Virus record (IMG/VR): IMGVR_UViG_3300025687_000060
Coordinates: 1 to 52,685 of that record
Length of the DNA stretch: 52,685 nt
Source: a virus
Lineage: Duplodnaviria > Caudoviricetes
Direction: 5' to 3' (one strand)
Of this stretch, positions 2,145 through 18,966 are shown piece after piece. The notes beneath the pieces were generated by a model that saw nothing but the letters and a program-made list of their open reading frames with translations, ran no database searches and was not told where the DNA came from. The position numbers and the translations under genes are program-made. The first letter of the stretch is position 1. The number at the start of each line of letters is the position of its first letter.

Positions 2145-2202
2145 AAAAGTAGTTAAAATGGGGTAAAAAGGTATTAAAAACGTTATTAAATGTATTAAAA
2201 AA
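2145..2202. repeat. helically phased A-tracts
   Basis: A-runs start at 2145, 2155, 2165, 2176, 2188, 2197 (about 10.4-bp period). Confidence 0.7.
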
Positions 2203-2306
2203 TATATTAGAGTGTTTTATTCGTCTTGATAATTATTAGTATTATTGTGTGATAATGATATGGATTCGTATCAAATAGTGTACTTATTCGTCCTTGGAAA
2301 CGTTAG

Positions 2307-2377
2307 AAATAGTGTAGAATACCTTATGGAATAGTGTCTATTATCTTATGAAATAGTCTGTATTATCTTATGAAATG
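2307..2377. repeat. 22-bp imperfect tandem repeats (iteron-like)
   Basis: aaatagtgtagaataccttatg / gaatagtgtctattatcttatg / aaatagtctgtattatcttatg plus a partial fourth unit; a further aaatagtgta at 2273. Confidence 0.8.
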
Positions 2378-2693
2378 CTTCGGGGTCTTGTGGTCTTAGC
2401 GTGCGCTCTACCGAAAGTCAACATAAAACTCCCAAACCCTCATAATACTTCACAGACCCAGGCAGTTTTTCACTTTTTCCCTTTTTCAGTTTTTATAATT
2501 TTTCAATTTATTACAAATACATAAAACCACATAAAGTCTCTGAGATTTTATGATAGAATGGCACAGTACAGTAAGGTATAGATACACTCCTAATTTACAC
2601 TGTATAATAACTCAGAGGACTTGTAAATATAATTTAATGAATTGAAATAATTATATTTTGTTTTGTTCAATTCTTTATATCTTATTATTTTAT

Positions 2694-2787
2694 GGCAGGG
2701 GCGGTGGCGACCTTTGGCGTCATCAGTGCTACCCCGCACCTCGTCGGATTGTCAGTCAGGCAAGCAAGGTTCCCTCCCTCGATTGTC
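2694..2787 (-). ncRNA. candidate small structured RNA (strand uncertain)
   Basis: GC-rich island downstream of a minus-strand promoter; hairpin 2694-2740; no credible ORF. Confidence 0.35.
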
Positions 2788-2792
2788 CCCAT

Positions 2793-2844
2793 ATCCTACA
2801 GCATCAGGCGGCAGAGCACAAGGCAAAAGAGTAGCGGATGATAC
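2793..2844 (-). promoter_or_regulatory. sigma70-type promoter with upstream GTA-N8-TAC box
   Basis: Minus strand TTGTGC (2821-2816), 17 nt, TAGGAT (2798-2793); box GTAGCGGATGATAC at 2831-2844. Confidence 0.6.
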
Positions 2845-2897
2845 CAAAAACAGAATCCGATTGATCAGAAGGAGTTATGGGTCGGATCTGGAAAACG

Positions 2898-2949
2898 GTA
2901 TCGCTCGCTACCGTTTGCTCTTGACGGGGTGAGATGGGTGCCGTATTGT
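2898..2949 (+). promoter_or_regulatory. sigma70-type promoter with upstream GTA-N8-TAC box
   Basis: Box GTATCGCTCGCTAC at 2898-2911; TTGACG (2921-2926), 17 nt, TATTGT (2944-2949). Confidence 0.7.
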
Positions 2950-2975
2950 TGTCTCAAGTCAATCAACCGCCTTCA

Positions 2976-3575
2976 ATGACCGCTGAGAACGTCGCCGCCG
3001 TCTTCGCCCTTGCTACTGCTGGGGAGCGCCAGACTCATGCAAGTTGGTACGAAACCGCCAGGGGCGCTGCCATCGCCATCGCTGACGCCACTGGATTGGA
3101 ACTAGAGACCGTTGTTGGCGTGATCGCTGCCCTGTCGCCAACCAACAAGTGGGAGCGTAACTTAGTCGATGCTGAGAATGTCTGCCGTACCTATGTGGCG
3201 GATCCCGAGTCTGCTGCAAGCGTTAAAGTCTGCACATATGGAAATAACCTCAAGAAAGCGATTAAGGTGCTTGAGTGTGAAGAACTGGATGAGATTCCGA
3301 CTATACTCAACGGTCGTAAGATCACTGCGTTCTTCCACTGTATTATGGGTAATCAGGACGCCGTTGTTGTTGACGGTCACGCCTATTCTATCTGGATCGG
3401 TGATCGTCTTACTATGAAACAAGTGCCTAGTATTGGTGTGAAACTGTACAGAATTATCGTTGCTGATTATGTTCAAGCGACCGATATCATCAACGCTCGC
3501 TATAACCTAACTCTGAAACCTTACCAGGTCCAGAGCATTACTTGGAACGCCTGGAAACGCATCCACGGAGTATAA
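2976..3575 (+). CDS. phage protein resembling HhH-GPD DNA-glycosylase-fold proteins (DUF7178-like)
   Basis: Motifs WY...AALSP..W..N, G.KI..F...I, VVDGHA, Q..TW; start reassigned to ATG2976 after the promoter; family call is from memory. Confidence 0.6.
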   Translation: MTAENVAAVFALATAGERQTHASWYETARGAAIAIADATGLELETVVGVIAALSPTNKWERNLVDAENVCRTYVADPESAASVKVCTYGNNLKKAIKVLECEELDEIPTILNGRKITAFFHCIMGNQDAVVVDGHAYSIWIGDRLTMKQVPSIGVKLYRIIVADYVQATDIINARYNLTLKPYQVQSITWNAWKRIHGV

Positions 3576-3584
3576 AGAACCGAA

Positions 3585-3611
3585 GGGAGAGTTACTAACA
3601 CTAACTCTCCC
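3585..3611. terminator. perfect 10-bp hairpin, possible terminator (better U-tail on the minus strand)
   Basis: GGGAGAGTTA-CTAACAC-TAACTCTCCC; minus-strand tail TTCGGTTCTTT. Confidence 0.55.
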
Positions 3612-4175
3612 AACACAAAATATAGAAAACCGTTTTTTCCTTTTTTTACATTTTTGTATCTTTATTCTTTATCCTTAAACCTTGAACTTTCGTCGTTGTT
3701 CTTTATACTTCTACTCGATGTGTTCGTCTTAATTACACCTGAGCGATAGTTAATTGTACCACTATTTTATGCGTCTCAGATGAGATTTAATGGACTCTTT
3801 ATCATTACGTTTTGTCAAAATATACTTGACCTCATGAGACTCACAGTGATAAATGTAAAATAGCAGTGCAACTTCGTGGTCTTAAGTATACCTTTCGTTT
3901 TGTTACAACTGTATCAGGGCGAACAGCAGTTGTCCGTGATCCGTGTTATGGTGCGGGTTTTGCCCTTGCGGTTTAAAAACGCCTAACTACCCTAACCTAC
4001 AACGAACCAAAATCGCTTGAGATATCACAAACCCATAAAAATTTCCCAGGACCCCAGAAGACCCCCCATACCTTAAAGGACCCCCCAATTCCCGCCCAGG
4101 AAAAAAAATTCCCAGGGGTAAAAATGGTCTCAAAAGTTCGCAGATAATATATAAAGAAAAGTGCCTATGAATATT

Positions 4176-4326
4176 ATGAAACTCGAATTAGAAGACCACG
4201 AAAGAGAATTACTTATCGACACTCTAAGAGTATCGGATTGAGAACGACGTTGAGTTGATCAGAGATACAACAACCAAAGAAGATCTCACTTACTTATTGG
4301 AGAAAATAGAAGATGAATACTTATAA
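4176..4326 (+). pseudogene. small ORF apparently split by a +1 frameshift at about 4227
   Basis: MKLELEDHERELLIDTL continues in the +1 frame as EYRIENDVELIRDTTTKEDLTYLLEKIEDEYL*. Confidence 0.45.
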
Positions 4327-4498
4327 TATTTCAGTAAATGGAATCACAGTATTTCAGAGAATACCTGAAAGAAAAGTAAAAGATTACAAAGAACGGTTGA
4401 GAAATTTTATTTTTATGGGTAGTTCAAAGACTCTCAAGGACATTGAGGAAAGAATTGAAGTGTCTCTAAATACTAAAGATGACCATTGCAATAATTGA
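4313..4498 (+). CDS. small hypothetical protein
   Basis: 61-aa ORF in gene-dense + strand context. Confidence 0.65.
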   Translation: MNTYNISVNGITVFQRIPERKVKDYKERLRNFIFMGSSKTLKDIEERIEVSLNTKDDHCNN

Positions 4499-4514
4499 CT
4501 TGTGGTGGTATAAT
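4486..4514 (+). promoter_or_regulatory. sigma70-type promoter
   Basis: TTGCAA (4486-4491), 17 nt, TG-G-TATAAT (4509-4514). Confidence 0.7.
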
Positions 4515-4537
4515 AGATTCGTTACTAATTCATTTTC

Positions 4538-5287
4538 ATGGCTAAAGGATTTACAGTAAAAACCGTAGCGCCTTCAAAATCAAATACAGATGATTTTGAT
4601 TTGGCAGCAGCAAAAGAAATGATTCGAGGTAAGTCAGTTGTATTCTGTCTTCCAGGAAGAGGTTGTTCCTATATTTTCCTGAAGGCATTTGTGCAACTTT
4701 GCTTCGATCTCGTTCAGAATGGAGCAAGCATTCAAATTTCACAAGACTATAGTTCCATGGTGAACTTTGCACGTTGTAAGTGTCTTGGTGCAAATGTTCT
4801 CCGTGGTCCCAAGCAGATTCCTTGGGATGGTAAACTTCAGTATGATTATCAACTGTGGATTGATAATGATATTGTCTTCGATACCGAGAAGTTTTATCGT
4901 CTGGTTGCAATGGACAAAGAGATTGCCGCTGGTTGGTATTGTACCGAAGACGGTCGTACCACGTCCGTTGCACATTGGTTGGAAGAAGGTGATTTCCGTC
5001 AGAATGGTGGCGTGATGAATCATGAAACCATAGAAACCATGAGCAAGCGTCGCAAGCCTTTCACTGTGGACTACACTGGATTCGGATGGGTTCTGATTAA
5101 GCATGGAGTTTTTGAGAGTCTTGAGTATCCTTGGTTCGCTCCGAAGATGCAACAGTTTGAGTCTGGAGAGGTTCAGGATATGTGTGGCGAGGATGTCTCG
5201 TTCTGTCTAGATGCGATTGAGAAAGGATATGAGATCTGGTGCGACCCCCAGATTCGTGTGGGGCATGAGAAGACTCGTATTATTTGA
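4538..5287 (+). CDS. GT-A fold glycosyltransferase-like protein
   Basis: WIDNDIVF (DxD), TGFGWVLIK...FE, GEDVSFC...G..IW.D.....GH motifs typical of GT2-like phage proteins. Confidence 0.75.
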   Translation: MAKGFTVKTVAPSKSNTDDFDLAAAKEMIRGKSVVFCLPGRGCSYIFLKAFVQLCFDLVQNGASIQISQDYSSMVNFARCKCLGANVLRGPKQIPWDGKLQYDYQLWIDNDIVFDTEKFYRLVAMDKEIAAGWYCTEDGRTTSVAHWLEEGDFRQNGGVMNHETIETMSKRRKPFTVDYTGFGWVLIKHGVFESLEYPWFAPKMQQFESGEVQDMCGEDVSFCLDAIEKGYEIWCDPQIRVGHEKTRII

Positions 5288-5398
5288 TGTCTGGTTATGT
5301 TCTGATGTTCTTCCTGGGTTCTTCTGGGGAGCATTGGAAAAAACCGTATTTTAAGCCCCGTCAAAAACCCGTAAACAAAACATTATTGGAGTATTATC

Positions 5399-5548
5399 AT
5401 GGCTAAATCAAAAGTTGGACTGGTGAAGACTAGTTATAGTCCTGGTCCGCCGAAGAAAACCCGCCAAGGAGATGGCGGTGGCACAAAGTACGCTGCATCG
5501 TCCCGCAATGGTGCCCGTAAGAAGTACAGGGGTCAAGGTAAGGGTTAA
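5399..5548 (+). CDS. small basic protein (49 aa, ...SRNGARKKYRGQGKG)
   Basis: Manually translated; GGAG RBS at about 5388; missing from the ORF track. Confidence 0.8.
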   Translation: MAKSKVGLVKTSYSPGPPKKTRQGDGGGTKYAASSRNGARKKYRGQGKG

Positions 5549-5979: not shown

Positions 5980-6037
5980 CTCATAAGGGATAGCAACCCC
6001 TCTAAAAGTTCTGTTTTTTCATAAAACAGGAGCTAAA

Positions 6038-6283
6038 ATGGGACAATCACCTGTAGATAGAAATCAAAACTACATGAGAGAGATGTGGGGAACCGCAAAA
6101 CTCATCACTGATTATGGTTCAATGCAAAATAATCAGAAAAGGGTGCTGACAGAAGTTATGCACGACAATGCACCACTTCATGATCTGAAAAAACAGTCTG
6201 AATTGCACGAAAAAATCAGAAATGATGAAGATTATGATGACTGGAGTTATGGAACTGAACCCTCATATGGAAAGAAATGGTAG
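6038..6283 (+). CDS. hypothetical protein
   Basis: AGGAG RBS, late promoter upstream. Confidence 0.8.
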   Translation: MGQSPVDRNQNYMREMWGTAKLITDYGSMQNNQKRVLTEVMHDNAPLHDLKKQSELHEKIRNDEDYDDWSYGTEPSYGKKW

Positions 6284-6322
6284 AAAACCATTATAGATAG
6301 TATATTCAGTGTAACAACTTGG

Positions 6323-6724
6323 ATGGCTGTATCAATTTCTCGTGCTTTTAGGGACATTAGTTTGTCTTTTACGAGACATCCTGTCACAAATGATATCACT
6401 ATTCTCAGAAATGAGGATGCAATTAAGAAATCTGTCATTAATTTGGCGAGAACTCGTCTGAATGAGAGATTTTTTAATGATTTGCTTGGTACATCCATTG
6501 AAGATTCAATGTTTGAGTTGAATAATTCAGACATTTCTTCATTTTTAGAAGAGGAAATCACGACTTTACTCAATAATTTTGAACCAAGAATCAAATTGAC
6601 CAATGTTTACATTGATTCTCAACCAGATTCTAACGATTTGTACATCAGAATTGAGTATGATATCACTGGATTACCTTTTCCAACGCAGAATATAGAGTTT
6701 ATCTTACAACCGACTAGGGTATAA
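6323..6724 (+). CDS. gp25: baseplate wedge subunit gp25
   Basis: DISLSF..HP.T.D, AIK.S..N, ERFF, FEPRI motifs; precedes gp6. Confidence 0.92.
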   Translation: MAVSISRAFRDISLSFTRHPVTNDITILRNEDAIKKSVINLARTRLNERFFNDLLGTSIEDSMFELNNSDISSFLEEEITTLLNNFEPRIKLTNVYIDSQPDSNDLYIRIEYDITGLPFPTQNIEFILQPTRV

Positions 6725-8682
6725 TGTCATTCAATCAGTTCACAAATCTAGATTTTAATGATCTAAGGACTCAGATTAAGTCTTATCTGAGGGCCAATAG
6801 CAATTTTACTGATTTTGACTTTGAGGGATCAAACTTTTCGGTCCTGATTGATACTTTAGCGTATAATTCATACATCACCGCCTACAATACTAACATGGCG
6901 GTGAATGAATCTTTCATTGATAGTGCTACTTTACGTGAAAATGTCGTTTCTTTGGCGAGAAACATTGGTTATGTTCCAAGATCGAAGAAGGCATCCGTTG
7001 CAAGAATCAGTTTTTCCGTTGATGTAAGTAATACTTCTGCCAGATCAGTTAAATTAAAGGCAGGACTTGTTGCTTTGGGGTCAGTTGTCAATGGAAATTA
7101 CATCTTTTCGATTCCAGATGATATCACAGTCACTCCAGACACCGATGGAATTGCTTCTTTTAGTGATATTGAGATATACGAAGGTAATTTATTGAGAAAG
7201 TCATTTACAATTGACGATTCTCAACCAGATTCAAAATATATTCTTCCAAATTCAGATATCGACACGTCCACAATTCGTGTTTCTGTGACATCTACAGCAG
7301 TTGAGACTTATTATACATATAAAAATATTTTTGATGTAGATTCATCATCAAGACTTTTCTTGATTCAAGAAATTGATGATGAAAGGTACCAAATTTTGTT
7401 TGGTGACAATATTATGGGCAAGAAACCCAGTAATGGAAGCACTGTAGATGTATCATATATCGTCACCAACGGTGAATCTGCAAATGGAGCATCGAATTTC
7501 AACTTCTCTGGCAATCTTGTTTACTATAGAGGTGGAACTGAGGTACCAATTACGTCTGGGATATCTGTTTTAACGACCCTACAAGCGTCTGAAAATGGCG
7601 ATGACATAGAAACTATAGACAGCATCAAATACCTCGCTCCAAGGGTCTATGCATCGCAGTACAGAGCAGTTACATCGAATGATTATACAAGTCTAATTCC
7701 ATTTTTATATCCAAATATCGATTCTGTGAGTGCATATGGTGGGGAAGAACTTGATCCCCCACAATATGGAAAGGTTTTCATTACAGTTAAACCAAAAAAT
7801 GGAGAACTTCTGTCTGATATAACGAAACAAGCAATCAAAAATGATCTGAAAAAATATACAGTTGCTGGTATTAGACAAGAATTTTTAGATCTGAAGTATC
7901 TTTACGTTGAGTATGATTCAACTGTATCATACGATCCAGGTCGAGTCAATAATTCTCAGGATTTGCATTCTAGAATTTCTGCAGCAATTGAGTCATACTC
8001 TGATTCAGTGGATATTAATTCATTTGGTGGAAGATTTAAATATAGTAAACTTTTATCGCAGATTGATAAAGTTGATTCTGCCATCACATCAAATATCACA
8101 AAAGTTGTAATGAGAAGGAATATGGTTCCTGCATACAACTCTCTTGCAAACTATGAAATTTGCTATGGAAACCAGTTCCATGCAGATCCAGAAGGTTTTA
8201 ATATTAGATCTTCTGCTTTTAGGATTGATGGGGTTGAGGGAGATGTATATCTCACTGATGTACCAAATCTCACAACCACATCACAATCAGTATCCACCGT
8301 TAGTGATGCTGGAAATGTTTTTTCGTCTAGACCGACAAGCATTTCCGCAAAAACTGGATTAATTTCCATAATCAGTGTCGATTCTACTAATACTATTAGA
8401 ACAATTATAAAAAATGCGGGAGCAGTTGATTATGAAAGAGGAGAAATAACATTAACTCCTATTAACATTATTTCTACTTCACTCAATAATCGCATTGAAA
8501 TAGAAGTTACTCCAGAATCAAATGATATTGTCGCAAAAGAGAACCTTTATATTGTCCTAGATACTACAGGAAATAGTATACTAACCCTTAAGCAAGATTT
8601 GATTTCCTCTGGATCTAATAGATCTGGTACTTCATACATACCACCATCAAGTTTCATCAATAACAAAAAATACACAAGATAA
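6724..8682 (+). CDS. gp6: baseplate wedge subunit gp6
   Basis: FTDFDFEGSN, DSATLRENVVSLAR.IGY.P.S, Q.RAVT..DY motifs. Confidence 0.95.
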   Translation: MSFNQFTNLDFNDLRTQIKSYLRANSNFTDFDFEGSNFSVLIDTLAYNSYITAYNTNMAVNESFIDSATLRENVVSLARNIGYVPRSKKASVARISFSVDVSNTSARSVKLKAGLVALGSVVNGNYIFSIPDDITVTPDTDGIASFSDIEIYEGNLLRKSFTIDDSQPDSKYILPNSDIDTSTIRVSVTSTAVETYYTYKNIFDVDSSSRLFLIQEIDDERYQILFGDNIMGKKPSNGSTVDVSYIVTNGESANGASNFNFSGNLVYYRGGTEVPITSGISVLTTLQASENGDDIETIDSIKYLAPRVYASQYRAVTSNDYTSLIPFLYPNIDSVSAYGGEELDPPQYGKVFITVKPKNGELLSDITKQAIKNDLKKYTVAGIRQEFLDLKYLYVEYDSTVSYDPGRVNNSQDLHSRISAAIESYSDSVDINSFGGRFKYSKLLSQIDKVDSAITSNITKVVMRRNMVPAYNSLANYEICYGNQFHADPEGFNIRSSAFRIDGVEGDVYLTDVPNLTTTSQSVSTVSDAGNVFSSRPTSISAKTGLISIISVDSTNTIRTIIKNAGAVDYERGEITLTPINIISTSLNNRIEIEVTPESNDIVAKENLYIVLDTTGNSILTLKQDLISSGSNRSGTSYIPPSSFINNKKYTR

Positions 8683-8685
8683 GAA

Positions 8686-11600
8686 ATGGCAGATAAAAAA
8701 GTAAGTATCTCTAATATTCTGGGCAGTCAGATCCCAGATTTTATTCAGAGCGAAAGTCCTCTGTTCAAAGAATTTTTAGAGCAATACTATGCTTCCGAAG
8801 AGCATGAGTATGGTACAACTTATCTTGCCGATAATCTTGATGATCTGAAAGATATCTCAAAACTATCTGGTGTAATATATGCTGCTGTTCCAGTAGTATT
8901 AACTGAAGATGCCTACCACCTTGATGAAGTTATCAATGTTAATACTACTGAGGGTTTTCCAGATACCTATGGTTTAATTAAAATTGATAATGAAATTATT
9001 ACATACACTGGAAAGACATTAACTTCATTTACTGGTTGTGTTCGTGGTTTTAGTGGTATATCTAAGATTGAAAGTAGCAATAATCCAGAGTTTTTAACCT
9101 TTAGTGATACCGAAATTGATTATCATTATTCTGGAACTTCAGTTGAAAATCTCAGTCTTTTATTTGTAGAGAAATTTTACAATAAATTTAAATATCAGTT
9201 TTTGCCAGGACTTGAAAATAGAAATTTTGAGAACTTATCTTTTGAAAATATTCTCTCTAGAGCAAAAGATTTTTACAGTTCAAAAGGAACTGATACAGCA
9301 GTAAAAATTCTCTTCAACGTTCTATTTGCAAAAAATGCAACTGTAATTAGACCATTTGATAATACCATTGTATCTTCGGATGCATATTGGTCAAAGTTCC
9401 CATCATTAACAGTAGAAACAATTGAAGGAAATCCAAAAAATTTAGAGTCTACAACTATTTTTCAAGGTTCGACAGAATCACCAACTGCAACTGCGGTAGT
9501 ATCTAGGGTTGAGGAAAAATTTGTAGGAACAAAGAGATATTATAGATTATTCGTTTCACAGGGAACTTTATCGAATAAATTTAATGTATCAAAGAAAACC
9601 AAGGTACTAGGTACAACTAATTCTACATCTGTAGTTACTGTCGATTCTACTGTAGGATTCCCAGATTCAGGTATTTTTTATTATCAAACTTCTGAGGGAA
9701 ATTATGCCTCTGTAGAATATCAGTCGAAATCATATAATCAATTTTTTGGTTGCTCTGGTTTATCTGATCCATTAGAGGAAAGCACAGAAATCATTGATGA
9801 TAATTTCATATATGGAAATGAAAATTTTGATTTGACCCAAATTTGTCAAATGAGAATTATTGGATCAATTCAAGGTCTTTCCGAAAATAGCAAAAATTCT
9901 CAGTATTTCAAAAAAGGAGATTTAATAAGTTTAAAATATTTTGGAGAAAAACCTTCACTAGAGAATAAAAAATACAATAGTTGGTTTTATAACAATGTTT
10001 ATGAACTTGACATAGAAAATTTAGATATATCCACAAGTACTGTCACAACAAGCGCAAAACATTTCTTACATGTTGGTGATGTCGTAGATATTTTAATTAA
10101 AGATACAAAACAAGTTGCTGCTAGTGACCTAGAAGTTACTAGCATACTTAGCAAAAATGCATTTAAAATTCAATCTGGATCTTTCCAATCTGGAGTAAAG
10201 TATATTGCTAAGAAGAAATTATTATATTCTAATTCAAACTTAATAGATACACCGCTCTTAGCAAATATTCAAAATTCTTTTTCGGATTTAGAAGAAAATA
10301 TATACGTATCTTTTTCTGGTCTACCTTCATATAGTAGCATAGAAACGTCTGATAGATCCAAGACTTTTAGGTTCAGTGATGTTGATACTAGCACTGGAAT
10401 AGTTACAATTAATCAACATCAATTTTTAAATGGAGATAGAGTTTATTTCGAAGTAACTTCTGGGTCCAATTATGTTACTGATGGATTCTATTACATAAAA
10501 AAAATTACAGTAAACACTTTTAAATTATCTTCAAGTTTACCTTCAATTTATAGTAACTTTAGTGTAGATTTTAGTGGAATTTCAAGTGTAGATGAATTTA
10601 AAATAACTCCATTTTCATTATATCAAAAAGTTTTACAAAATCAAAATCATTTAAAGAGAATACTAAAGAATCCAAGAGCAAAAAAAGAAGATAGAATTAT
10701 TTCCGATGAAATTGGAACTTTGCTAAATGGCATAGAGTTAAAATCTCCAGTTTCATCAGATTCCTATTTCTATGGTCAAATTGAAAGTATAAACATTATA
10801 GACGATGGAAATGATTTTGATGTTTTAAATCCTCCAGATATTCAAATCATAGATGATTCTGGATCTGGGGCAAATGCCCATTTAAATCTAGATGGAGAAC
10901 TTGTAGATGTTGTTTTGACATCTGGTGGATTCAATTATGCAGAAAATCCAGTTGTAAAAGTTATTGGAGGTAACGGATCTGGAGCAGTTTGCGAATCTAA
11001 ACTGAGAGGTTATTATCATCAAGAATCATTTACAGATTTTCAAGTTAATCTCGTTACAAATATAATTGAGTTACCAGAACCTCATAAGTTTTTAGACGGG
11101 GAAGAGGTCGTATATTTAAATACTGGAAATTCTATTGGAATTGGAAGTACTAATGTTGGATTTAGTACAGATAGACTTTCCAAAAATAGTTTGTATTACA
11201 TTGCAAAACAAAGTGACACTTCATTCTCTTTGGCAGCAACAAAAGACAGAGCATTATCGAAAACAAAATTAATAGACTTGAATGCATATGGAAATGGAGA
11301 CCATACATTAAAATCAAGAGAACTCAGAAAAATAATTGATAGAATTTCTGTAATAAATCCTGGAGAAGGATACAAAAATACTAAAATAGAAGTAGATTCC
11401 CAGTCATATCCACAATCTAATAGAAAAAATCTTTTCACACAGTTTGTTGGTATAAACACTCATGATAATTACATTTATGCGAGAAATCATAATTTTAGAA
11501 GTGGCGATCAGGTAGTTTATTCTATTTCTTCTGGTGGTTCAGCAATCTCTGGATTATCTACTTCAAATTACTACATTGTGACTGTAATAGATGACCATAA

Positions 11601-14600
11601 GTTCAAATTAAGTGAAGCAGGAACTGCCTCCAGTATAACTAGTGTCAACTATGATAGAAAAATATATTCTGAAATAAATGATATTGGTTCTGGAAGTCAT
11701 ACTTTTAAGTATCCAGAAATTCAAGTTTCAATTGATGGATTAGTGTCCCTTGGATCTACTACAGTAATTCCATCTTATTATCAAGCAAGCGCATATCCAG
11801 TTGTAAGAGGAAGCATAGATAGCGTTTTCATTAAATCTGGAGGAATTGGTTACGGAGTTACTGATATTATCAATTATTCAAGAACACCCGCAATAAAAAT
11901 TCTCACAGGTAAAGAAGCAGATTTAAGAGCAGTTGTTGATTCTACTGGAAAATTAAGCAGCATTTATATATCAAATGGTGGATCAGAGTACACTACTCCA
12001 CCAACCCTTGTTGTAGAAGGATCTGGTATTTCTGCTTCTCTTAGAGCAAATATATCAAATGGAGTTATTACATCTGTTGATATTTTAGATGCAGGTAAAA
12101 AATATAAACAAAATGACACAAAGATCAGAGTAATTCCAACTGGATCTAATGGAAGATTGGGAGCAGAATTACATGAGTGGAAAATTAATGATGTAAAAAG
12201 ATATCAAAATATATTATCCGATCTGAATGTTCATACTATCCAGAAAAAAGCACCTATTCCTTCTTTGGGATCAAAATTAGTTTCATTTTATCCTGCAAGA
12301 TTTTATCGTTCATTACTAAATGACAATGTTGTAGATACCCAAAGTGGATATATTGAAGCAACTAGCAATTTGAATCATTCTCCTATAATTGGGTGGGCGT
12401 ATGACGGAAATCCAATTTATGGACCATATGGAAATGGTAAAGCAATTCCAGATGCTTCGGGAACTGGTGGAATTAAGAAAATTTATTCAAGTTATTCGAT
12501 AGATCAAGTAATTACACCTGGATTAAGACCTCCAGTTCCTGCTGGAGATTTGGTACAGGATTATTTGTATGACTCTAGTGGAGACCTTGATGAATACAAT
12601 GGAAGATATATCGTTAACTCTGATTTTCCAAATGGAACATATGCATATTTCTGCACGTTAGATGTGTCGGATAATTTTGCATATCCATATACTACATTCA
12701 TGCATAGAAATGAGTCTGATGGATTTAATTATGACTTAACAAAAAATCAATTAGATGCAACTATTAATGATGGAAACTACAAGAGAAATGTATCTCATTT
12801 GGGAATAAATGATGTCTTCAGAAATTATCCATTTGTATCGCCTGCCGTAGAATCTAATCCAGAAGTAGAAGTAACTTACTCAAAACCTTCTGGAATTACC
12901 TCTCTTGATATTGTTGATCCTGGTTCTTCCTATAAAGTTGGTGATTTGATTAATTTCAATACACCAGAAATTAGTGCTTCTGTTAAGGAAATCAAAGGAA
13001 AGGGGATATATTCGATTCAGAGCACAGATTATACCTATGAAAATGTAGTATTTTCAATAAATGGAAATAAAGTTACTGGAATAACTACATCTTCTAATAA
13101 TTTTATTGATGGTGATCGTCTGGAAATATCTGGAATTTCTTCTTCATTGTATATAGATTTAGAAGGGATTAAAAAAGTAGGTGTAAGTACAGTTGAAAGC
13201 TTACTATCCGTCTCGCTTGGAACTACATCAATAACTGGTATAAACACACATTTAACTCTTACAGAATCACCAAGAAGTAGAAAGTTCAGGAAAAATGATC
13301 TGATCCAAATTGGATCAGAATTGATTTTGATTACCGATTTAGACCTTGTTAATAATAGGTATAAGGTCCTTAGAGAACAAAATGGTTCAACAAGTTCAAG
13401 TCATACCGAAAATACACAGGTAACAAAAATACAAAAAGAATTTTCATTTGAAATTGATAAAAAACTACAAAATAAAAACGTAGAGACAGGATACATACAG
13501 TATTTTAATTCATTGCAGTCTGTTGGTATTGGAACTTCATACTCTTCTGTAACTGTTGGTTTTGCTGGAAGTACACAAATTGTAAAATCAATTCCACCAA
13601 GAGCAATATATCTAAATGATCACAAATTCGAAACTGGGGATGAACTGAGATATGTATCATATGGTGGATCTATTACTGCTTCAGCAACAAATTCTTTAAG
13701 TGATACATTTAGGTTAGATGAGTTTGATAAGTTATATTGTGTCAAAATTAATGATGAGTATATTGGAGTATCAACACAAAAAGTAGGATTCACAACAAAC
13801 TATGTTTATTTTGATGCTGCAACTGATACTTCTCATAGTTTTGAAGTAATTAAAACTAATTTGACTGGAATAGTCAAAAAGAAATTAATAACAGTAACAT
13901 TAAACGAACAGCATTCACTTAAAAATAATGATGAAATAAGTCTTAGAGTTACCCCTAAGAGAACCCAAAATTATAATTTTATTTTCAATGATTCTGCTAG
14001 GAAGTTAGTAGTAAATTCAGTTTCATTTGCATCAACGTATATTTCTGTTGGTTCTACAGATTCATCAATTTTCATAGAAAATCATGGACTCGAAACTGGA
14101 GATTTAGTGGTATATACTAATAATATTGGTATTGCGACTCCATTGCAGAACAATGAAACATATTATGTTATAAAAATTTCTGATAGTAGAATAAAGTTAG
14201 CAAAAAATTCATATGATTATAAAAAATACCCATACTCTTATATCGGCATCACGACCTTTGGATCTGGTTTACATGAAATTTCAAAAGTCAATCCAAAATT
14301 AGAATTCTATAAGGGAAATACAGTATCAATTGGAGTTTCCGATGTCAGTTTAATAGACTATGATGTAAACTTCTATTTGGATGATAAATTCAAAGCAAGA
14401 TATAATTCTAGTTTGATTACAAAAACTGGAGTGTTTGGTGACTTAAATCCAAATACTAAAATTAATATTAATGTTACTGATGATCTACCAAAAACTTTAT
14501 TTTACAGATTGGAAGGAAAAAATAATAATTACACCAATACTTTCCCATCTTCAATTAACGCAGAAGTAAATGAAAATTCAACTATAAAAGTTTTAGATTC

Positions 14601-17600
14601 AAAATATAATAATTCTCATATTATTTCTGGAATTGGTAGTACAACATTTGATTTTAATTTTGTTGGATTTGCAGAAACTACATCTTATACATCTTCCAAT
14701 GTTAATGATGTATTTTACTATACAAAATCAACAAATGATAGTGGTCCAATTTATTCGACAAAAATTATCGAATACGGAAGAAATGTTGCTGAATTCCCAT
14801 TTGTAACTTCGATTGGTTCTACTAGTGGTTCTGATGCGAGTATTTCTGCAAATAGTTTTGATATTGGAAGAATAGTTGACACTAAAGTCAATAATCAAGG
14901 ATATGAATTTGTAGAGGATAAAACATTAACACCAAAAGCAAACTCAAATACAGTTCTTTTCCTGAAAAATGCTTTAACCTTATCTGGAGTAAATGTAACA
15001 GATGGTGGAAGTAATTATACATCTCCACCAAATATAACTGCAGTTGGAAATGATTCGATACTTGCCATTTCAAAACTTCAAGGCAACTCTGTATTATCTG
15101 CTGAGGTTATTTTTGGTGATAGTAATTTGTCTCCAGATTTGAGACTATTCCCAACAAATAACTCCAATGGGGTAACCGTTATTGGTTCTTCATCTGCTTT
15201 TGGAGAAAATACTTTAACTCTTAGAGCACCAATTTTGGGATTCACTGTATTCCCATTTGAAGAAGGTGATGAAATTTTTGTAGAAAACGTCAAAATTATT
15301 GACGGTTCTGGAAGTGGATATAATTCTGCTGATTATGACTATCAAAAATTAGTTGTAACGGGAATTAACACGATTAGTGGATCAGAGAGTGTAACTTATG
15401 CAATACCTGGAGTTGGTGCTACGACTGGAGGTTCCTATGATTCATCTAATACTTTTGGAAGAGTGGTAAAATATGACAATTTATGCGAACTTAGTCCCAT
15501 CTTAGATAAAGTTTTATACTTAGAGGGGGAGAAAGTACAATCTACCAATGGCGATGCATATGGATTTGTAGCGAAAAATGGTTGGAATCCAGACAATCAA
15601 ACTTTAAAACTTATTAACGTTTCTGGGCAATTTGATCAAAATGATATAATATCTGGAAATATTAATGGTTACAAATCTACTGTTTCTAGTACAGTAGAGT
15701 ATGATTTTGATTTAAAAGTTGGAAGTGTAGTAGAGACAGAAGGACAATGGCAAACTGATACTGGAAAACTAAATTTAGATACTCAAAGATTGCATGACAG
15801 TGACTATTATCAGAGATTTTCATATTCAATAAAAGGTGAAGTTCCATATGAAACCTGGTCAGAACCAGTTGATAGTTTGTGTCACACTTCTGGTTTCAAA
15901 AAGTTTTCAAATTTAGAAATTAATAATGGAATAGGAAATTCAGTAAGAACATCAATCAATGATACTACAATCAATTTAGATATTCTGGTTGATAGTTCTG
16001 CATCCGTACATTCTATTACTCATTATGATTTGGTTTCGGAAGATACAGATGATCCAGGTCTATCTAAACTTGTAAAGTTAGATTCTAAAATTATTACAGA
16101 TTATATTGAATCCAGAACGAATAAAGTTTTAATGATCGATGATCTTAGTTCAGATTTTACTGGATACACAACTTCTATCGGCGGACAAATTGTAGGACTA
16201 ACAACATTTGCAATTTATAGTGATGAAATTAGTTTATTGTATCATACTTTCGATCCAGATGATACATTAAATTCAATTATCACTATTAATTCTCACAATT
16301 TTATCACTGGAGAGGAACTGAAATATTCACCAACAAATAACGATTTGAATAGTGGAACAGCAATAGGAATTGCTACTACAAGTTCCCTTGGTATTGGGGT
16401 AGGATCGACAGATTTGCTTCCAGAAACAGTATATGCTATCAAACTATCAGAAAGTCAAATCAAACTTGCTATAGGGTCATCAGAAGCGTTAGCAGGAACT
16501 GCTATATCATTTACTAGCGTCACTGGTATTGGATCTACTCATAGTTTAGAAGTTAGTAGCGATTTAGCAAACACTAGAAGTTTGATAACAATTGATAATG
16601 TTATCCAAAGTCCAGTTTCCAGAAAAGATATTCAGGTTTCCCTTTCCGATGCCGTGGGAATTGGTTCTACAATTGTATATTTGAATGATATATCTAAGAT
16701 AACAGGAAACTCTTTGTTAAAAATTGAAGATGAAATCATAAAGGTCACCTTTGTTGGTATTGGATCAACAAACTCTTTGAATATTATTAGAGGTCAAATG
16801 GGAACTGTTGCTGCTGCACACACCATAGGTGCTGGAGTAACGGTCCTTTCTGGAGATTATAATATTGCACATGGAAATTTATATTTCAAAGATGCTCCTT
16901 ATGGAAATAGTGATAACAGATCAACTTTCTCGGGAAGAATATTCTATAAACTAAATTATGATACCAATTTAATTATTGATGACATTTCAGAGTCATTTGA
17001 TGGTGCAACTGATAAATTCGATTTGACTTCAAACTCACAACAAATCAGTGGAATTCAAACTAGTTTTGGAGTTATTCTGATCAATAACATATTCCAAAAA
17101 CCATTCTATGGTGATGTTGGTTCTATTTTAAATTCTGATTATCAAATTGTTGGAACAGGACAAACCATAGATTTCACTGGAACGACAGTTGAGGATCTCC
17201 CAAGAGGTGGAATTATTAATGAATTTGATGTTGGTATCGGAAGTGGGTATCAAGTACCAAGAAGAGCACTAGCAACAGCAGTTATTTCTGCTAGTGGTAC
17301 AATTCAATCAATTGGTCTTTCTACTGGTGGTTCTGGTTATATTGATGCTCCTAGAGTTTCAATAGCAGATACACTTGGTGTTGGGATTGGTGCTTCAATT
17401 ATTGCATCTGTAACTGCTGGACTAGTCACTTCATTTACAATTGCAGCTGCTGGAAGCGGTTATACAAGTACAAACCCACCTCTAGTTGTAATTGATGAAC
17501 CAAATCCATACAAAGACATTCCACTTTCTGGTGGACAAGGATCTGGAGCAAAAATGGATGTTGTTGTTGGAACTGGAGGGAGTATAATAACATTTGATAT

Positions 17601-18966
17601 TTCTAATCGTGGAATTGGTTATGAAATTGGTGATATTTTAACTTTAGCAGAACTTCCATTCCAAGTTGGAATCGGTACAAGCAACTTCGAAATAACTGTT
17701 AGAAATAGATATCAAAACAAGTTTGCTGGATGGACTTTTGGTCAATTATTAGAATTAGATAGTTTTGATAATCTATTCAATGGTGTGAGGAGATCATTCC
17801 TTTTAACCAGAACAATCACATCAAAGGAATATTATAGTATTGTTGCTCAAGAAGGTTCTGGCATCGAATTGCAAAATAATCTGTTGATATTCTTAAACGA
17901 TACGTTGCAAATACCAGGAAAAGACTATACATTCAATGGTGGTACTCGTTTGCAGTTTACTGAAGCACCAAGAGCGGGAAGCAAAATTAAATTATACTTC
18001 TATAATGCGTCATCTTCTGATGCAGTTGAGGTAGATATCGATGAAACAATTAAACGTGGAGATATACTAACCTTACAGACACAAGGAACGGTTCCACAAC
18101 AAGATGACAGAGTAATCTATGAGGTAATTGCTGCAGATACTGTAGAAACACAAACATATAGTGGAGTTGGAATCATAACAGATACATCTTTCACTAGACC
18201 AACAATATGGACAAAACAAACGTCAGATACAATTATTGATGGTGAATATATTTCCAAAGAAAGAGATTATTTGGAACCAAAGATTTTCCCATCCACAAAT
18301 ATTATTGCATCAGTTGCATCTACAGATGGAAAAATTTATGTCAAAGACACATATCTTTTCAGTAAAGTAGATAACTTAGGTAACACTCTCAATGATGTTT
18401 TCATAGTTGGACTTGGAACTGAAGTAGTCACCGAAAAACTCTCATCGGTACAATATGCTGGTGATTATGGACTGATTGTTGGTGTTGGTGCAAGTTCAAC
18501 AGGAATTAATACAACATCACCAATGCTTGAAATTGATTTGATACCACATCCAGACATTTATAGCAATACCCCAGGACCAGGAGAAGTCTCTAGACCAGGA
18601 ATATCAACTGGAGATTATTTTGTAATCGAAAACACTATACTTGGAGATGGAGTTACTTCAATAGACAATAATTTCTCTATTGTCTCTGTAGGAAATAGTT
18701 TTATAGACAATGTTTACTATGCAAATAATGTTACTTCTATAGGGTCATCAGGAGTTCGTGTTTCCGTAAATGTCCAATCCATATCTGGAATTGATACTAC
18801 ATCATTACCAACTTTGCAAAATTATGGAACTTTCAGTTGGGGATACATGACAGCGCCAAGATCAGCAAATTCACAATCATTTGATTTCTATAATCAAAAT
18901 GGATTATTGGGAATAGAAACATCTGCTCATGTGGGTAGACTTTTGCAATTAAGATTGACCTACTAA
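8686..18966 (+). CDS. gp7: giant baseplate wedge initiator (gp7-like), 3426 aa
   Basis: Position between gp6 and gp8; FY.SKGT motif, HSPIIGWAYDGNPIYGPYG, DSDYYQRFSYSIK; many internal repeats. Confidence 0.8.
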   Translation: MADKKVSISNILGSQIPDFIQSESPLFKEFLEQYYASEEHEYGTTYLADNLDDLKDISKLSGVIYAAVPVVLTEDAYHLDEVINVNTTEGFPDTYGLIKIDNEIITYTGKTLTSFTGCVRGFSGISKIESSNNPEFLTFSDTEIDYHYSGTSVENLSLLFVEKFYNKFKYQFLPGLENRNFENLSFENILSRAKDFYSSKGTDTAVKILFNVLFAKNATVIRPFDNTIVSSDAYWSKFPSLTVETIEGNPKNLESTTIFQGSTESPTATAVVSRVEEKFVGTKRYYRLFVSQGTLSNKFNVSKKTKVLGTTNSTSVVTVDSTVGFPDSGIFYYQTSEGNYASVEYQSKSYNQFFGCSGLSDPLEESTEIIDDNFIYGNENFDLTQICQMRIIGSIQGLSENSKNSQYFKKGDLISLKYFGEKPSLENKKYNSWFYNNVYELDIENLDISTSTVTTSAKHFLHVGDVVDILIKDTKQVAASDLEVTSILSKNAFKIQSGSFQSGVKYIAKKKLLYSNSNLIDTPLLANIQNSFSDLEENIYVSFSGLPSYSSIETSDRSKTFRFSDVDTSTGIVTINQHQFLNGDRVYFEVTSGSNYVTDGFYYIKKITVNTFKLSSSLPSIYSNFSVDFSGISSVDEFKITPFSLYQKVLQNQNHLKRILKNPRAKKEDRIISDEIGTLLNGIELKSPVSSDSYFYGQIESINIIDDGNDFDVLNPPDIQIIDDSGSGANAHLNLDGELVDVVLTSGGFNYAENPVVKVIGGNGSGAVCESKLRGYYHQESFTDFQVNLVTNIIELPEPHKFLDGEEVVYLNTGNSIGIGSTNVGFSTDRLSKNSLYYIAKQSDTSFSLAATKDRALSKTKLIDLNAYGNGDHTLKSRELRKIIDRISVINPGEGYKNTKIEVDSQSYPQSNRKNLFTQFVGINTHDNYIYARNHNFRSGDQVVYSISSGGSAISGLSTSNYYIVTVIDDHKFKLSEAGTASSITSVNYDRKIYSEINDIGSGSHTFKYPEIQVSIDGLVSLGSTTVIPSYYQASAYPVVRGSIDSVFIKSGGIGYGVTDIINYSRTPAIKILTGKEADLRAVVDSTGKLSSIYISNGGSEYTTPPTLVVEGSGISASLRANISNGVITSVDILDAGKKYKQNDTKIRVIPTGSNGRLGAELHEWKINDVKRYQNILSDLNVHTIQKKAPIPSLGSKLVSFYPARFYRSLLNDNVVDTQSGYIEATSNLNHSPIIGWAYDGNPIYGPYGNGKAIPDASGTGGIKKIYSSYSIDQVITPGLRPPVPAGDLVQDYLYDSSGDLDEYNGRYIVNSDFPNGTYAYFCTLDVSDNFAYPYTTFMHRNESDGFNYDLTKNQLDATINDGNYKRNVSHLGINDVFRNYPFVSPAVESNPEVEVTYSKPSGITSLDIVDPGSSYKVGDLINFNTPEISASVKEIKGKGIYSIQSTDYTYENVVFSINGNKVTGITTSSNNFIDGDRLEISGISSSLYIDLEGIKKVGVSTVESLLSVSLGTTSITGINTHLTLTESPRSRKFRKNDLIQIGSELILITDLDLVNNRYKVLREQNGSTSSSHTENTQVTKIQKEFSFEIDKKLQNKNVETGYIQYFNSLQSVGIGTSYSSVTVGFAGSTQIVKSIPPRAIYLNDHKFETGDELRYVSYGGSITASATNSLSDTFRLDEFDKLYCVKINDEYIGVSTQKVGFTTNYVYFDAATDTSHSFEVIKTNLTGIVKKKLITVTLNEQHSLKNNDEISLRVTPKRTQNYNFIFNDSARKLVVNSVSFASTYISVGSTDSSIFIENHGLETGDLVVYTNNIGIATPLQNNETYYVIKISDSRIKLAKNSYDYKKYPYSYIGITTFGSGLHEISKVNPKLEFYKGNTVSIGVSDVSLIDYDVNFYLDDKFKARYNSSLITKTGVFGDLNPNTKININVTDDLPKTLFYRLEGKNNNYTNTFPSSINAEVNENSTIKVLDSKYNNSHIISGIGSTTFDFNFVGFAETTSYTSSNVNDVFYYTKSTNDSGPIYSTKIIEYGRNVAEFPFVTSIGSTSGSDASISANSFDIGRIVDTKVNNQGYEFVEDKTLTPKANSNTVLFLKNALTLSGVNVTDGGSNYTSPPNITAVGNDSILAISKLQGNSVLSAEVIFGDSNLSPDLRLFPTNNSNGVTVIGSSSAFGENTLTLRAPILGFTVFPFEEGDEIFVENVKIIDGSGSGYNSADYDYQKLVVTGINTISGSESVTYAIPGVGATTGGSYDSSNTFGRVVKYDNLCELSPILDKVLYLEGEKVQSTNGDAYGFVAKNGWNPDNQTLKLINVSGQFDQNDIISGNINGYKSTVSSTVEYDFDLKVGSVVETEGQWQTDTGKLNLDTQRLHDSDYYQRFSYSIKGEVPYETWSEPVDSLCHTSGFKKFSNLEINNGIGNSVRTSINDTTINLDILVDSSASVHSITHYDLVSEDTDDPGLSKLVKLDSKIITDYIESRTNKVLMIDDLSSDFTGYTTSIGGQIVGLTTFAIYSDEISLLYHTFDPDDTLNSIITINSHNFITGEELKYSPTNNDLNSGTAIGIATTSSLGIGVGSTDLLPETVYAIKLSESQIKLAIGSSEALAGTAISFTSVTGIGSTHSLEVSSDLANTRSLITIDNVIQSPVSRKDIQVSLSDAVGIGSTIVYLNDISKITGNSLLKIEDEIIKVTFVGIGSTNSLNIIRGQMGTVAAAHTIGAGVTVLSGDYNIAHGNLYFKDAPYGNSDNRSTFSGRIFYKLNYDTNLIIDDISESFDGATDKFDLTSNSQQISGIQTSFGVILINNIFQKPFYGDVGSILNSDYQIVGTGQTIDFTGTTVEDLPRGGIINEFDVGIGSGYQVPRRALATAVISASGTIQSIGLSTGGSGYIDAPRVSIADTLGVGIGASIIASVTAGLVTSFTIAAAGSGYTSTNPPLVVIDEPNPYKDIPLSGGQGSGAKMDVVVGTGGSIITFDISNRGIGYEIGDILTLAELPFQVGIGTSNFEITVRNRYQNKFAGWTFGQLLELDSFDNLFNGVRRSFLLTRTITSKEYYSIVAQEGSGIELQNNLLIFLNDTLQIPGKDYTFNGGTRLQFTEAPRAGSKIKLYFYNASSSDAVEVDIDETIKRGDILTLQTQGTVPQQDDRVIYEVIAADTVETQTYSGVGIITDTSFTRPTIWTKQTSDTIIDGEYISKERDYLEPKIFPSTNIIASVASTDGKIYVKDTYLFSKVDNLGNTLNDVFIVGLGTEVVTEKLSSVQYAGDYGLIVGVGASSTGINTTSPMLEIDLIPHPDIYSNTPGPGEVSRPGISTGDYFVIENTILGDGVTSIDNNFSIVSVGNSFIDNVYYANNVTSIGSSGVRVSVNVQSISGIDTTSLPTLQNYGTFSWGYMTAPRSANSQSFDFYNQNGLLGIETSAHVGRLLQLRLTY

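Follow-up and report, generated by a model that had tools for sequence, protein, structure and literature searches.

Promoter-early stem-loop (PeSL) cassettes have been described in T4-type phages (Arbiol et al. 2010, PMC2839356; Comeau et al. 2014, PMC4122927) and, according to the available extracts of these two papers, are dense repeats occurring in many copies within one genome, with a stem-loop that is itself the terminator and is often of the form GGGG...CCCC. In this study we describe a non-coding element of about 80 nt from T4-like cyanophages, one rearranged copy of which is found at positions 2690-2800 of the IMG/VR record IMGVR_UViG_3300025687_000060. The window, as the whole 52,685-nt stretch that was analysed is called here, is the entire record of this virus (CheckV completeness 28%) and is a fragment of a T4-like cyanomyovirus, in which genes for the baseplate wedge, sheath, portal, major head protein and terminase are present. 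The element is real, conserved and not previously described. We put at about even the chance that it is a cassette seam, like a PeSL, which carries a strand-specific signal acting in single-stranded form, perhaps a short antisense transcript.

The family was delimited by a covariance model (R1) built from 52 distinct copies, which gave 81 matches across 100 loci and a sole match in the window, at 2690-2768 (63.4 bits, E 1.5e-16). A 17-base motif, TACCCCNCNCCTCNTCNGATT, matched 69 stretches in IMG/VR, 67 of which hold the element either whole or truncated, and in 596 billion bases of prokaryote genomes the same motif was found in 18 stretches, 17 of them unrelated and one a full copy; an occurrence of this kind far exceeds chance. 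The latter (L135, 6086-6165, 92.6 bits; loci are designated here by L numbers) lies on a 14.9-kb contig binned in a Flavobacteriales metagenome-assembled genome, and is probably a mis-binned cyanophage contig. Wider patterns matched at least 119 IMG/VR stretches and at least 114 metagenome stretches, and with a pattern leaving the hairpin free, 178 distinct copies were obtained among the matches listed, the copies being located in T4-like cyanophage contigs; an exact 36-nt search of IMG/VR returned no match. The element is conserved almost base for base, with near-invariant columns making up about 60% of the alignment, and the flanks are unrelated between copies. Among named phages, Synechococcus phage DSL-LC03 is the sole match, with a single, unannotated copy in its 172.8-kb genome (OR003938.1, 82,233-82,313). 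AT-rich repeats are also found to the left of this copy, comparable to those in the window.

The first-pass annotation of 2694-2787, which had proposed a structured non-coding RNA or a replication-primer RNA, had left open a match to a known family, and none was found. Rfam 15 gave no match in the window at gathering scores, none overlapping the element in 2300-3100 with E up to 10, and none overlapping it in 14 loci with canonical copies with E up to 1; no Rfam 15 family thus fits the element by a covariance-model match at or near its gathering score. Cyanophage-associated motifs were reportedly described by Weinberg et al. in 2010 and are said to be in Rfam, and the element resembles such motifs in being a conserved non-coding motif known mostly from aquatic metagenomes. 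A literature search found no account of it, motif lists in supplementary files lying outside that search.

The role of the element at cassette borders is best seen from its flanks. When 181 loci with 400-nt flanks were compared (16,290 pairs), 14,849 pairs (91%) shared neither flank and had the element alone in common, the left flank alone was shared by 1,016, the right alone by 237 and both flanks by 157, and 31 were near-identical, so that one-sided homology (1,253 pairs) is eight times commoner than two-sided homology (157). The window copy itself provides an example. L345 matches the window at 1-2753 and 3568-5542, and L344 matches it up to 2742 (identity 79-88%); both of these closest relatives resume the match from about 3568 and carry unrelated sequence (6194-7027 in L345) in place of window 2754-3567. 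L001, on the other hand, matches window 2686-2745 and 2772-3571 only, through the DUF7178 gene, and nothing before 2686. The 5' part of the element, which includes the hairpins P1 and P2 (Table 1), is closest to L345 and L344, and the 3' part after the second GATTGTC is closest to L001; by these alignments, the window copy is a chimera of an L345-like 5' part and an L001-like 3' part together with the DUF7178 cassette. Two copies of a 15-nt tail, CCTCnnnnGATTGTC, flank a 19-nt filler (2739-2753 on one side, 2773-2787 on the other), and this duplication at the join accounts for the repeated GATTGTC (2747-2753 and 2781-2787) which had been pointed out from the sequence at the outset, each copy of it ending a tail.

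That the element acts as a seam for cassette exchange is well supported by these comparisons. The role rests on homology between copies, with no dedicated enzyme required. The base composition also follows the border of a cassette. DNA to the left is AT-rich, as had been noted (GC 0.25 over 2501-2700), and from 2701 to about 3200, reaching into the DUF7178 gene, GC is 0.52-0.60; positions 2694-2787 are the left border of a GC-rich cassette about 900 nt long, and the GC-rich island of roughly 95 nt that had been drawn there does not exist as such, because GC remains at that level up to about 3200.

Within the element, P2 is the sole helix backed by covariation, and is kept by compensating changes. 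In 102 distinct aligned copies, double-sided changes are seen at all four of its pairs and the paired cells amount to 96.8%; 26 stem variants are found among the 178 distinct copies. Its pairs rank first by mutual information, which with 55 and with 102 sequences revealed no other long-range pair, and it is the single helix predicted by RNAalifold; its loop TACCCC and the flank CCTCnTCnGATT are near-invariant. Differing P2 stems coexist within one contig (L114, L091, L076 and L057), which favours base pairing and disfavours a protein that reads both arms. Covarying structure in homologues had been named beforehand as a test of the first-pass annotation, and it was found in this helix, which that annotation had missed. 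The inner hairpin that it had proposed instead (P1) is paired in 84.7% of cells, with non-standard pairs in 29/102 and 30/102 copies at two positions, and is unproven because no pair in it changes on both sides. The proposed outer hairpin did not survive the comparison: two G-C pairs of GGCAGGGG with CCCC... are near-invariant (99/102 and 94/102 copies), and the remaining two pairs are broken in 51/102 and 57/102 distinct copies. Inspection by eye suggested two further candidates, namely pairing of the AT-rich 5' edge with the TATAAGATA 3' edge into a closing helix, and a pseudoknot joining the P2 loop to G-rich spacers; each was limited to one subtype and was rejected. The window copy folds no better than its dinucleotide shuffles (z +0.38 on the plus strand and -0.12 on the minus strand). 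The element is a signal conserved in sequence that has a single small hairpin, and is not a compact folded RNA; what stands of the structured non-coding RNA originally suggested is a non-coding signal with pairing kept by compensating changes, and what falls, against shuffles, is its stable folding.

The mismatches tolerated in P2 are asymmetric between the strands, so the question of which strand is functional, already posed in the first reading of the sequence, is a real one. When 712 cells from the 178 copies are read on the plus strand, none is G.U or U.G, 19 are A.C or C.A (in 6 stem types) and one is A.G. As an A.C on the gene strand is a G.U on the opposite strand, the tolerated intermediates still pair on the minus strand, which suggests that P2 is formed by the strand opposite that of the genes; with every wobble-type exception pairing on the minus strand only, the element would be read in single-stranded form. 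This points away from the slight preference for the plus strand that had been expressed, which rested on a G-U in the unproven P1, whereas the 19/19 exceptions in P2 pair only on the minus strand. The minus strand is also G-rich, in agreement with the earlier description. As regards transcription, contigs from four metatranscriptome runs (X1-X4) cover window 2183-2780, and short contigs cross other copies.

The surroundings of the copies follow a common layout. Upstream, a T-run of at least 5 lies within 60 nt in 116/191 copies, and the element usually comes after the intrinsic terminator of the preceding gene, as judged from the sequences inspected. Downstream come a variable spacer of about 26 nt, a palindrome (GTGCCAGTT..AACTGGCAC, or the half-site GTGGACAG) and then a promoter TTGnnn-N17-cATnAT, the promoter lying about 85 nt and the start codon about 107 nt 3' of the element. 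The only motifs inside the element resembling a -10 are TAnnnT motifs at both of its ends, with no -35, and its 3' end carries a near-invariant TA...TA (alignment columns 75, 79 and 80, entropy 0.1, 0.2 and 0.0). In the 113/174 copies where the palindrome is recognisable, its centre is 41-42 nt from the minus-strand TAnnnT in 93/113 copies and 40-44 nt from the plus-strand -10 of the downstream promoter in 101/113, and these spacings are constant although the intervening spacer sequence varies. From the spacings, the arrangement resembles a single operator flanked by two divergent -10 elements.

The same palindrome, GTGCCAGTT-N-AACTGGCAC, is also centred about 54 nt before the sigma-70-type start sites of many small genes (L114 2700-4800 on the minus strand, and other loci). 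Its half-sites are either GTGCCAG or the one-base-longer GTGGACAG and are combined freely; two half-site forms in any combination do not fit a simple hairpin, and the recurrent palindrome looks like an operator for a regulator. A further observation concerns the spacer between element and palindrome: L085 and the loci L067, L070 and L116 are near-identical and differ only in about 22 nt of it, which are either G-rich (..TTATGGGG..) or C-rich (..CCCATAAAACC..), with the length constant.

Table 1. Positions in the window of the element, its hairpins and the features of the adjoining cassette.
Feature	Positions	Strand	Description
Element core	2684..2753		AT-rich lead-in ATTATTTTATG; GCAGG 2695-2699; GTGGCGA 2704-2710; hairpin P2; first tail CCTCGTCGGATTGTC 2739-2753
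Candidate hairpin P1	2704..2725		inner hairpin GGTGGCG/CGTCATC of the first-pass annotation
Hairpin P2	2726..2739	-	GTGC 2726-2729; loop TACCCC 2730-2735 (GGGGUA on the minus strand); GCAC 2736-2739
Filler between tails	2754..2772		19 nt, AGTCAGGCAAGCAAGGTTC; not in L345, L344 or L001; no second copy in the window
Second tail copy	2773..2800		CCTCCCTCGATTGTC 2773-2787, then CCCATATCCTAC with near-invariant TAnnnTA 2792-2798
Best upstream sigma-70-like match	2579..2608	+	TAGATA, 18 nt, TATAAT; 10/12 matches; region common to L345 and L344
Inverted repeat AAACGGTATCG/CGCTACCGTTT	2893..2916		at the site of the relatives' palindrome GTGCCAGTT..AACTGGCAC, directly before the promoter
Sigma-70-type promoter of DUF7178 gene	2921..2949	+	TTGACG, 17 nt, TATTGT; layout shared by relatives
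Longer DUF7178 open reading frame	2934..3575		contains the promoter TTGACG-N17-TATTGT
DUF7178 gene	2976..3575	+	cargo of the GC-rich cassette; Pfam PF23802 at 1.5e-45, alignment begins at residue 15

In the mechanism that we propose, P2 would form on the minus strand and the element would be read single-stranded: the near-invariant TAnnnT of the minus strand would direct a short antisense transcript from a start about 7 nt beyond it, and this motif would mirror, across the shared palindrome, the -10 of the promoter downstream. The 5' region of this transcript, AAUCnGAnGAGG followed by the hairpin with its GGGGUA loop, could be bound by a putative factor. Taken alone, the antisense-transcript mechanism is tentative, and we would sooner expect it to be wrong than right, as several points weigh against it. 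The minus-strand TAnnnT has no -35 or TG extension among the copies examined and reads TAnnnT on the plus strand too, no consistent terminator was found for a minus-strand RNA, and on neither strand do the 102 family members exceed shuffles in fold stability (mean z -0.09 and -0.17). For the wobble argument, about 6 stem types count as independent, which gives roughly p = 0.03. In the window and L001 the element is about 68 nt farther than usual from the promoter hairpin, and the window has no GTGCCA..TGGCAC palindrome, a different inverted repeat being found at 2893-2916, so the mirror layout fails in the window itself. Other contrary points are those which would fit an RNA of the plus strand, with the element as the 5' part of a co-directional transcript, a leader or small RNA, starting at the AT-rich TATTTY just before GGCAGG or at a promoter farther upstream, and with the UACCCC hairpin and CCUCnUCnGAUU as a protein-binding or anti-Shine-Dalgarno-like site; this we consider unlikely. 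The element is co-oriented with genes, a palindrome and promoter (-10 TAGACT) lie 25-30 nt upstream of it in L001-L003, L081, L083 and L101, and in 21/191 copies an upstream palindrome is centred 48.5-50.5 nt before GCAGG, which places TATTTY at the usual -10 distance, as for a plus-strand promoter into the element. In the window, the 10/12 promoter match upstream (Table 1) could, by its sequence, be a source of plus-strand transcription into the element, and one metatranscriptome contig runs unbroken over 2498-2780, from the AT-rich region through the element, such contigs showing neither strand, ends nor level and being possibly derived from DNA. The consensus G.U of P1 would favour the plus strand as well, if P1, which is unproven, were real. 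On the plus strand, however, all of the 19/19 wobble-type mismatches in P2 are A.C or C.A and none G.U, and a consistent upstream sigma-70 promoter was sought on that strand and the best sites were scattered, from -2 to 23 nt. Many copies directly follow a terminator, and since the recognisable sigma-70 promoter of the next gene is downstream of the element, the element is not the 5' untranslated region of that gene. A riboswitch or gene-specific 5' leader is disfavoured on the same ground, and by the lack of a link to one gene family (the first downstream open reading frames (ORFs) of 58 copies fall into 31 clusters).

The primer of a replication origin, which had been suggested initially, would be a minus-strand transcript with a G-rich start that forms a lasting RNA-DNA hybrid and runs into AT-rich DNA, priming leftward synthesis as at T4 oriF and oriG with the displaced strand folding the hairpin. 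Its appeal lies in the G-rich minus strand that carries the hairpin and a -10-like TAnnnT, in the low copy number, and in the window itself, where this TAnnnT faces at least 130 nt at 25% GC, and three 22-nt repeats (2306-2376) and phased T-tracts (2466-2509) lie to the left in DNA with GC of 0.25; AT-rich repeats are also present left of the DSL-LC03 copy, and T4 oriE, in the available extracts of PMC3016281, uses an early promoter and has direct repeats. In most copies, however, the T-run described above is, from the sequences inspected, the terminator tail of the preceding gene, leaving little AT-rich DNA for unwinding, as many as 4 copies, one in inverted orientation, occur in about 2 kb (L147), and only 6/21 close relatives with sequence reaching 4 kb or more upstream carry the element. 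Cumulative GC skew, which is weak evidence, has its minimum at 4113 in the window, whereas in two complete genomes it is monotonic and there is only a local plateau at the element; moreover, T4 origins share no motif, according to the review PMC3016281. An origin primer is for us very unlikely. Quite unlikely, too, is a signal at the DNA level, in which a strand-specific enzyme would bind, cut or nick the minus strand, folded as single-stranded DNA, and so drive cassette exchange. Single-stranded folded DNA handled by such an enzyme is familiar from integron attC sites and IS200/IS605 ends, and by this analogy there is a slim chance that the element is a folded single-strand recombination or nicking signal, the phage counterpart of attC; in that case, cassettes upstream of the baseplate genes would turn over by an active, targeted process and not as a by-product of general recombination. 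The strand-specific hairpin with its invariant loop and flanks agrees with this, as do the position at cassette junctions, the chimeric window copy with its short duplication, the spacing to neighbouring DNA signals kept while the intervening sequence varies, and the lack of any thermodynamic fold beyond the small hairpin. The 4-bp stem is nevertheless short relative to known folded-DNA sites, no recombinase, HUH nuclease or integrase family was found among the 61 neighbouring proteins scanned or among the small neighbours, and homologous recombination between 80-nt repeats suffices for the mosaics, although the sufficiency of plain phage recombination is left open in the PeSL paper in its available extracts (PMC2839356). 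Finally, the element could be read as a small protein gene, as an ORF of 49 aa is open in the window (2692-2841), starting at the ATG in TTATGGCAGG. This ATG is lost in many copies, which have AAGG, TTGC or GCGC instead, 1- and 2-nt indels separate close copies, a three-base period is absent from the conservation pattern, and scanning the 49-aa ORF against Pfam-A and PHROG gave one weak Pfam match (E 0.04) under the cut-off; with no conserved frame or start codon, the comparative data rule out a small protein gene, and its chance is negligible.

The element is present in 1-5 copies per genome, with one copy in a complete 231-kb record and one in the complete genome of DSL-LC03, and 1-2 copies in three partial records. 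The most copies per locus are 3 (L114) and 4 (L147), the latter lying within 2.2 kb (6028-8216), with one copy inverted, diverged in its 3' part and head to head with a neighbour about 88 nt away. It is located in the variable region upstream of baseplate genes, where it heads single-gene cassettes. In the window and 7 further loci it lies 1.8-5 kb upstream of phrog_1574, which is followed by gp25-like and gp6-like baseplate genes, with the element in the same orientation. Of 21 further close relatives in which 4 kb or more precede phrog_1574, 6 have the element, which makes it an accessory feature, and 7/7 element matches in those 6 loci are co-oriented with phrog_1574; in all, element and gene point the same way in 14 loci with phrog_1574 in view. 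A crude orientation test based on ORF strands did not discriminate, with 80 co-oriented, 82 mixed and 12 opposite cases. The small neighbour genes include phrog_12516, phrog_1653, phrog_2554, DUF7178 and DUF7717, and none was assigned a function in Pfam and PHROG scans. In 9/54 loci, tRNA-Met and tRNA-Leu genes are found 1.5-5 kb from the element, never adjacent to it; tRNA-Met(CAT) and/or tRNA-Leu(TAA) are on the same strand as the element in L058, L059, L064, L074, L090, L103, L121 and L122. A tRNA and tmRNA scan of the window found none.

The cargo of the window cassette is the DUF7178 gene, upstream of which the core of the element is kept in the four closest DUF7178 loci. Its start is likely the ATG at 2976 and not that at 2934, because the Pfam match begins at residue 15, homologues begin at ATGACCGC and the promoter lies inside the longer ORF. 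The cassette has a GC of 0.52-0.60, compared with about 0.36 for the phage, and DUF7178 is also found in the cyanopodoviruses S-CBP2 and S-CBP42, which together with the replacement of the cassette in the closest relatives points to transfer between phage types. To the left of the element, an 800-nt stretch without long ORFs holds repeats at 2261-2376 and T-tracts at 2466-2509: three tandem 22-nt repeats (GAAATAGTGT...) at 2306-2376, together with an earlier pair spaced 34 nt, and four units of phased T-tracts with an 8-nt period (TTTTTCAnTTT), which by their sequence resemble iterons and bent DNA. The 47 nt at 2226-2272 contain a promoter-like TTGATA ... TGATAAT and recur in several short metatranscriptome contigs with differing flanks and a depth above that of their surroundings, like a repeated promoter module. 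Farther along, the structural module contains two giant ORFs at 8686-18966 (3,426 aa) and 20571-27821 (2,416 aa), which are assigned to baseplate or virion structural PHROGs.

Few viruses in water are as abundant as T4-like cyanophages, whose variable regions carry genes for host adaptation. A signal which is found near-unchanged in well over 100 unrelated contigs, at sites where single genes are swapped, provides a handle on the origin of this variability, and the element can be used as a marker of cassette boundaries, for which a covariance model exists. If it is true that the hairpin is read antisense, these phages contain an unrecognised small RNA or DNA-level signal, and bench tests are made possible by the cultured phage DSL-LC03 with its one copy.

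Of the systems to which the element may be compared, integron attC sites also mark gene-cassette boundaries and also have one DNA strand that folds. In attC sites, structure is kept with little sequence, the stems are long and imperfect and an integrase is encoded nearby, whereas the element has a near-invariant sequence and a 4-bp stem, with no integrase among the neighbouring proteins scanned. The lambda boxB/nut sites and the T4 gene 43 operator share with it a short covarying stem, an invariant loop and an adjacent invariant single strand; those sites are, however, in defined messenger RNA leaders with known binding proteins, whereas the transcript, strand and partner of the element are putative. 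Among the R-loop origins of T4, oriE lies near baseplate genes 5 and 6. The element resembles these origins (oriF, oriG and oriE), as far as the available extracts of PMC3016281 describe them, in a promoter-like signal that would be directed toward AT-rich DNA, in its low copy number and, in the window, in nearby direct repeats. They differ in that the AT-rich stretch is short in most copies of the element, which is missing from 15/21 close relatives and shows no skew turning point in two complete genomes, and in that, according to the same review, they share no sequence motif, whereas the element is a strict motif.

The comparison with PeSLs, drawn here from the extracts available of PMC2839356 and PMC4122927, is the most informative. 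The element differs from them in three respects: it is found in 1-5 copies per genome and at most 4 per locus instead of many; it has no terminator stem-loop, P2 having 4 bp, no U-run and a proposed antisense reading, and the fold being no more stable than that of shuffles, with the terminator-like hairpin and T-run upstream varying in sequence and lying outside the conserved block; and it apparently lacks a built-in promoter, the sigma-70-type promoter and the terminator, where present, being separate units on either side. Unlike a PeSL, it is conserved in a very large number of unrelated contigs. For PeSL cassettes, mini-circles arising from recombination between flanking copies are reported. 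Both are intergenic motifs conserved in the hyperplastic regions of T4-like phages, both have a sigma-70-type early promoter and a terminator beside them and stand at the head of small genes without assigned function, and both occur at insertion or replacement boundaries between related phages, with chimeric copies arising by recombination, as is seen here from the window compared with L345, L344 and L001 and from the flank pairs. The PeSL is the closest described system, and as a seam the element behaves in a PeSL-like manner.

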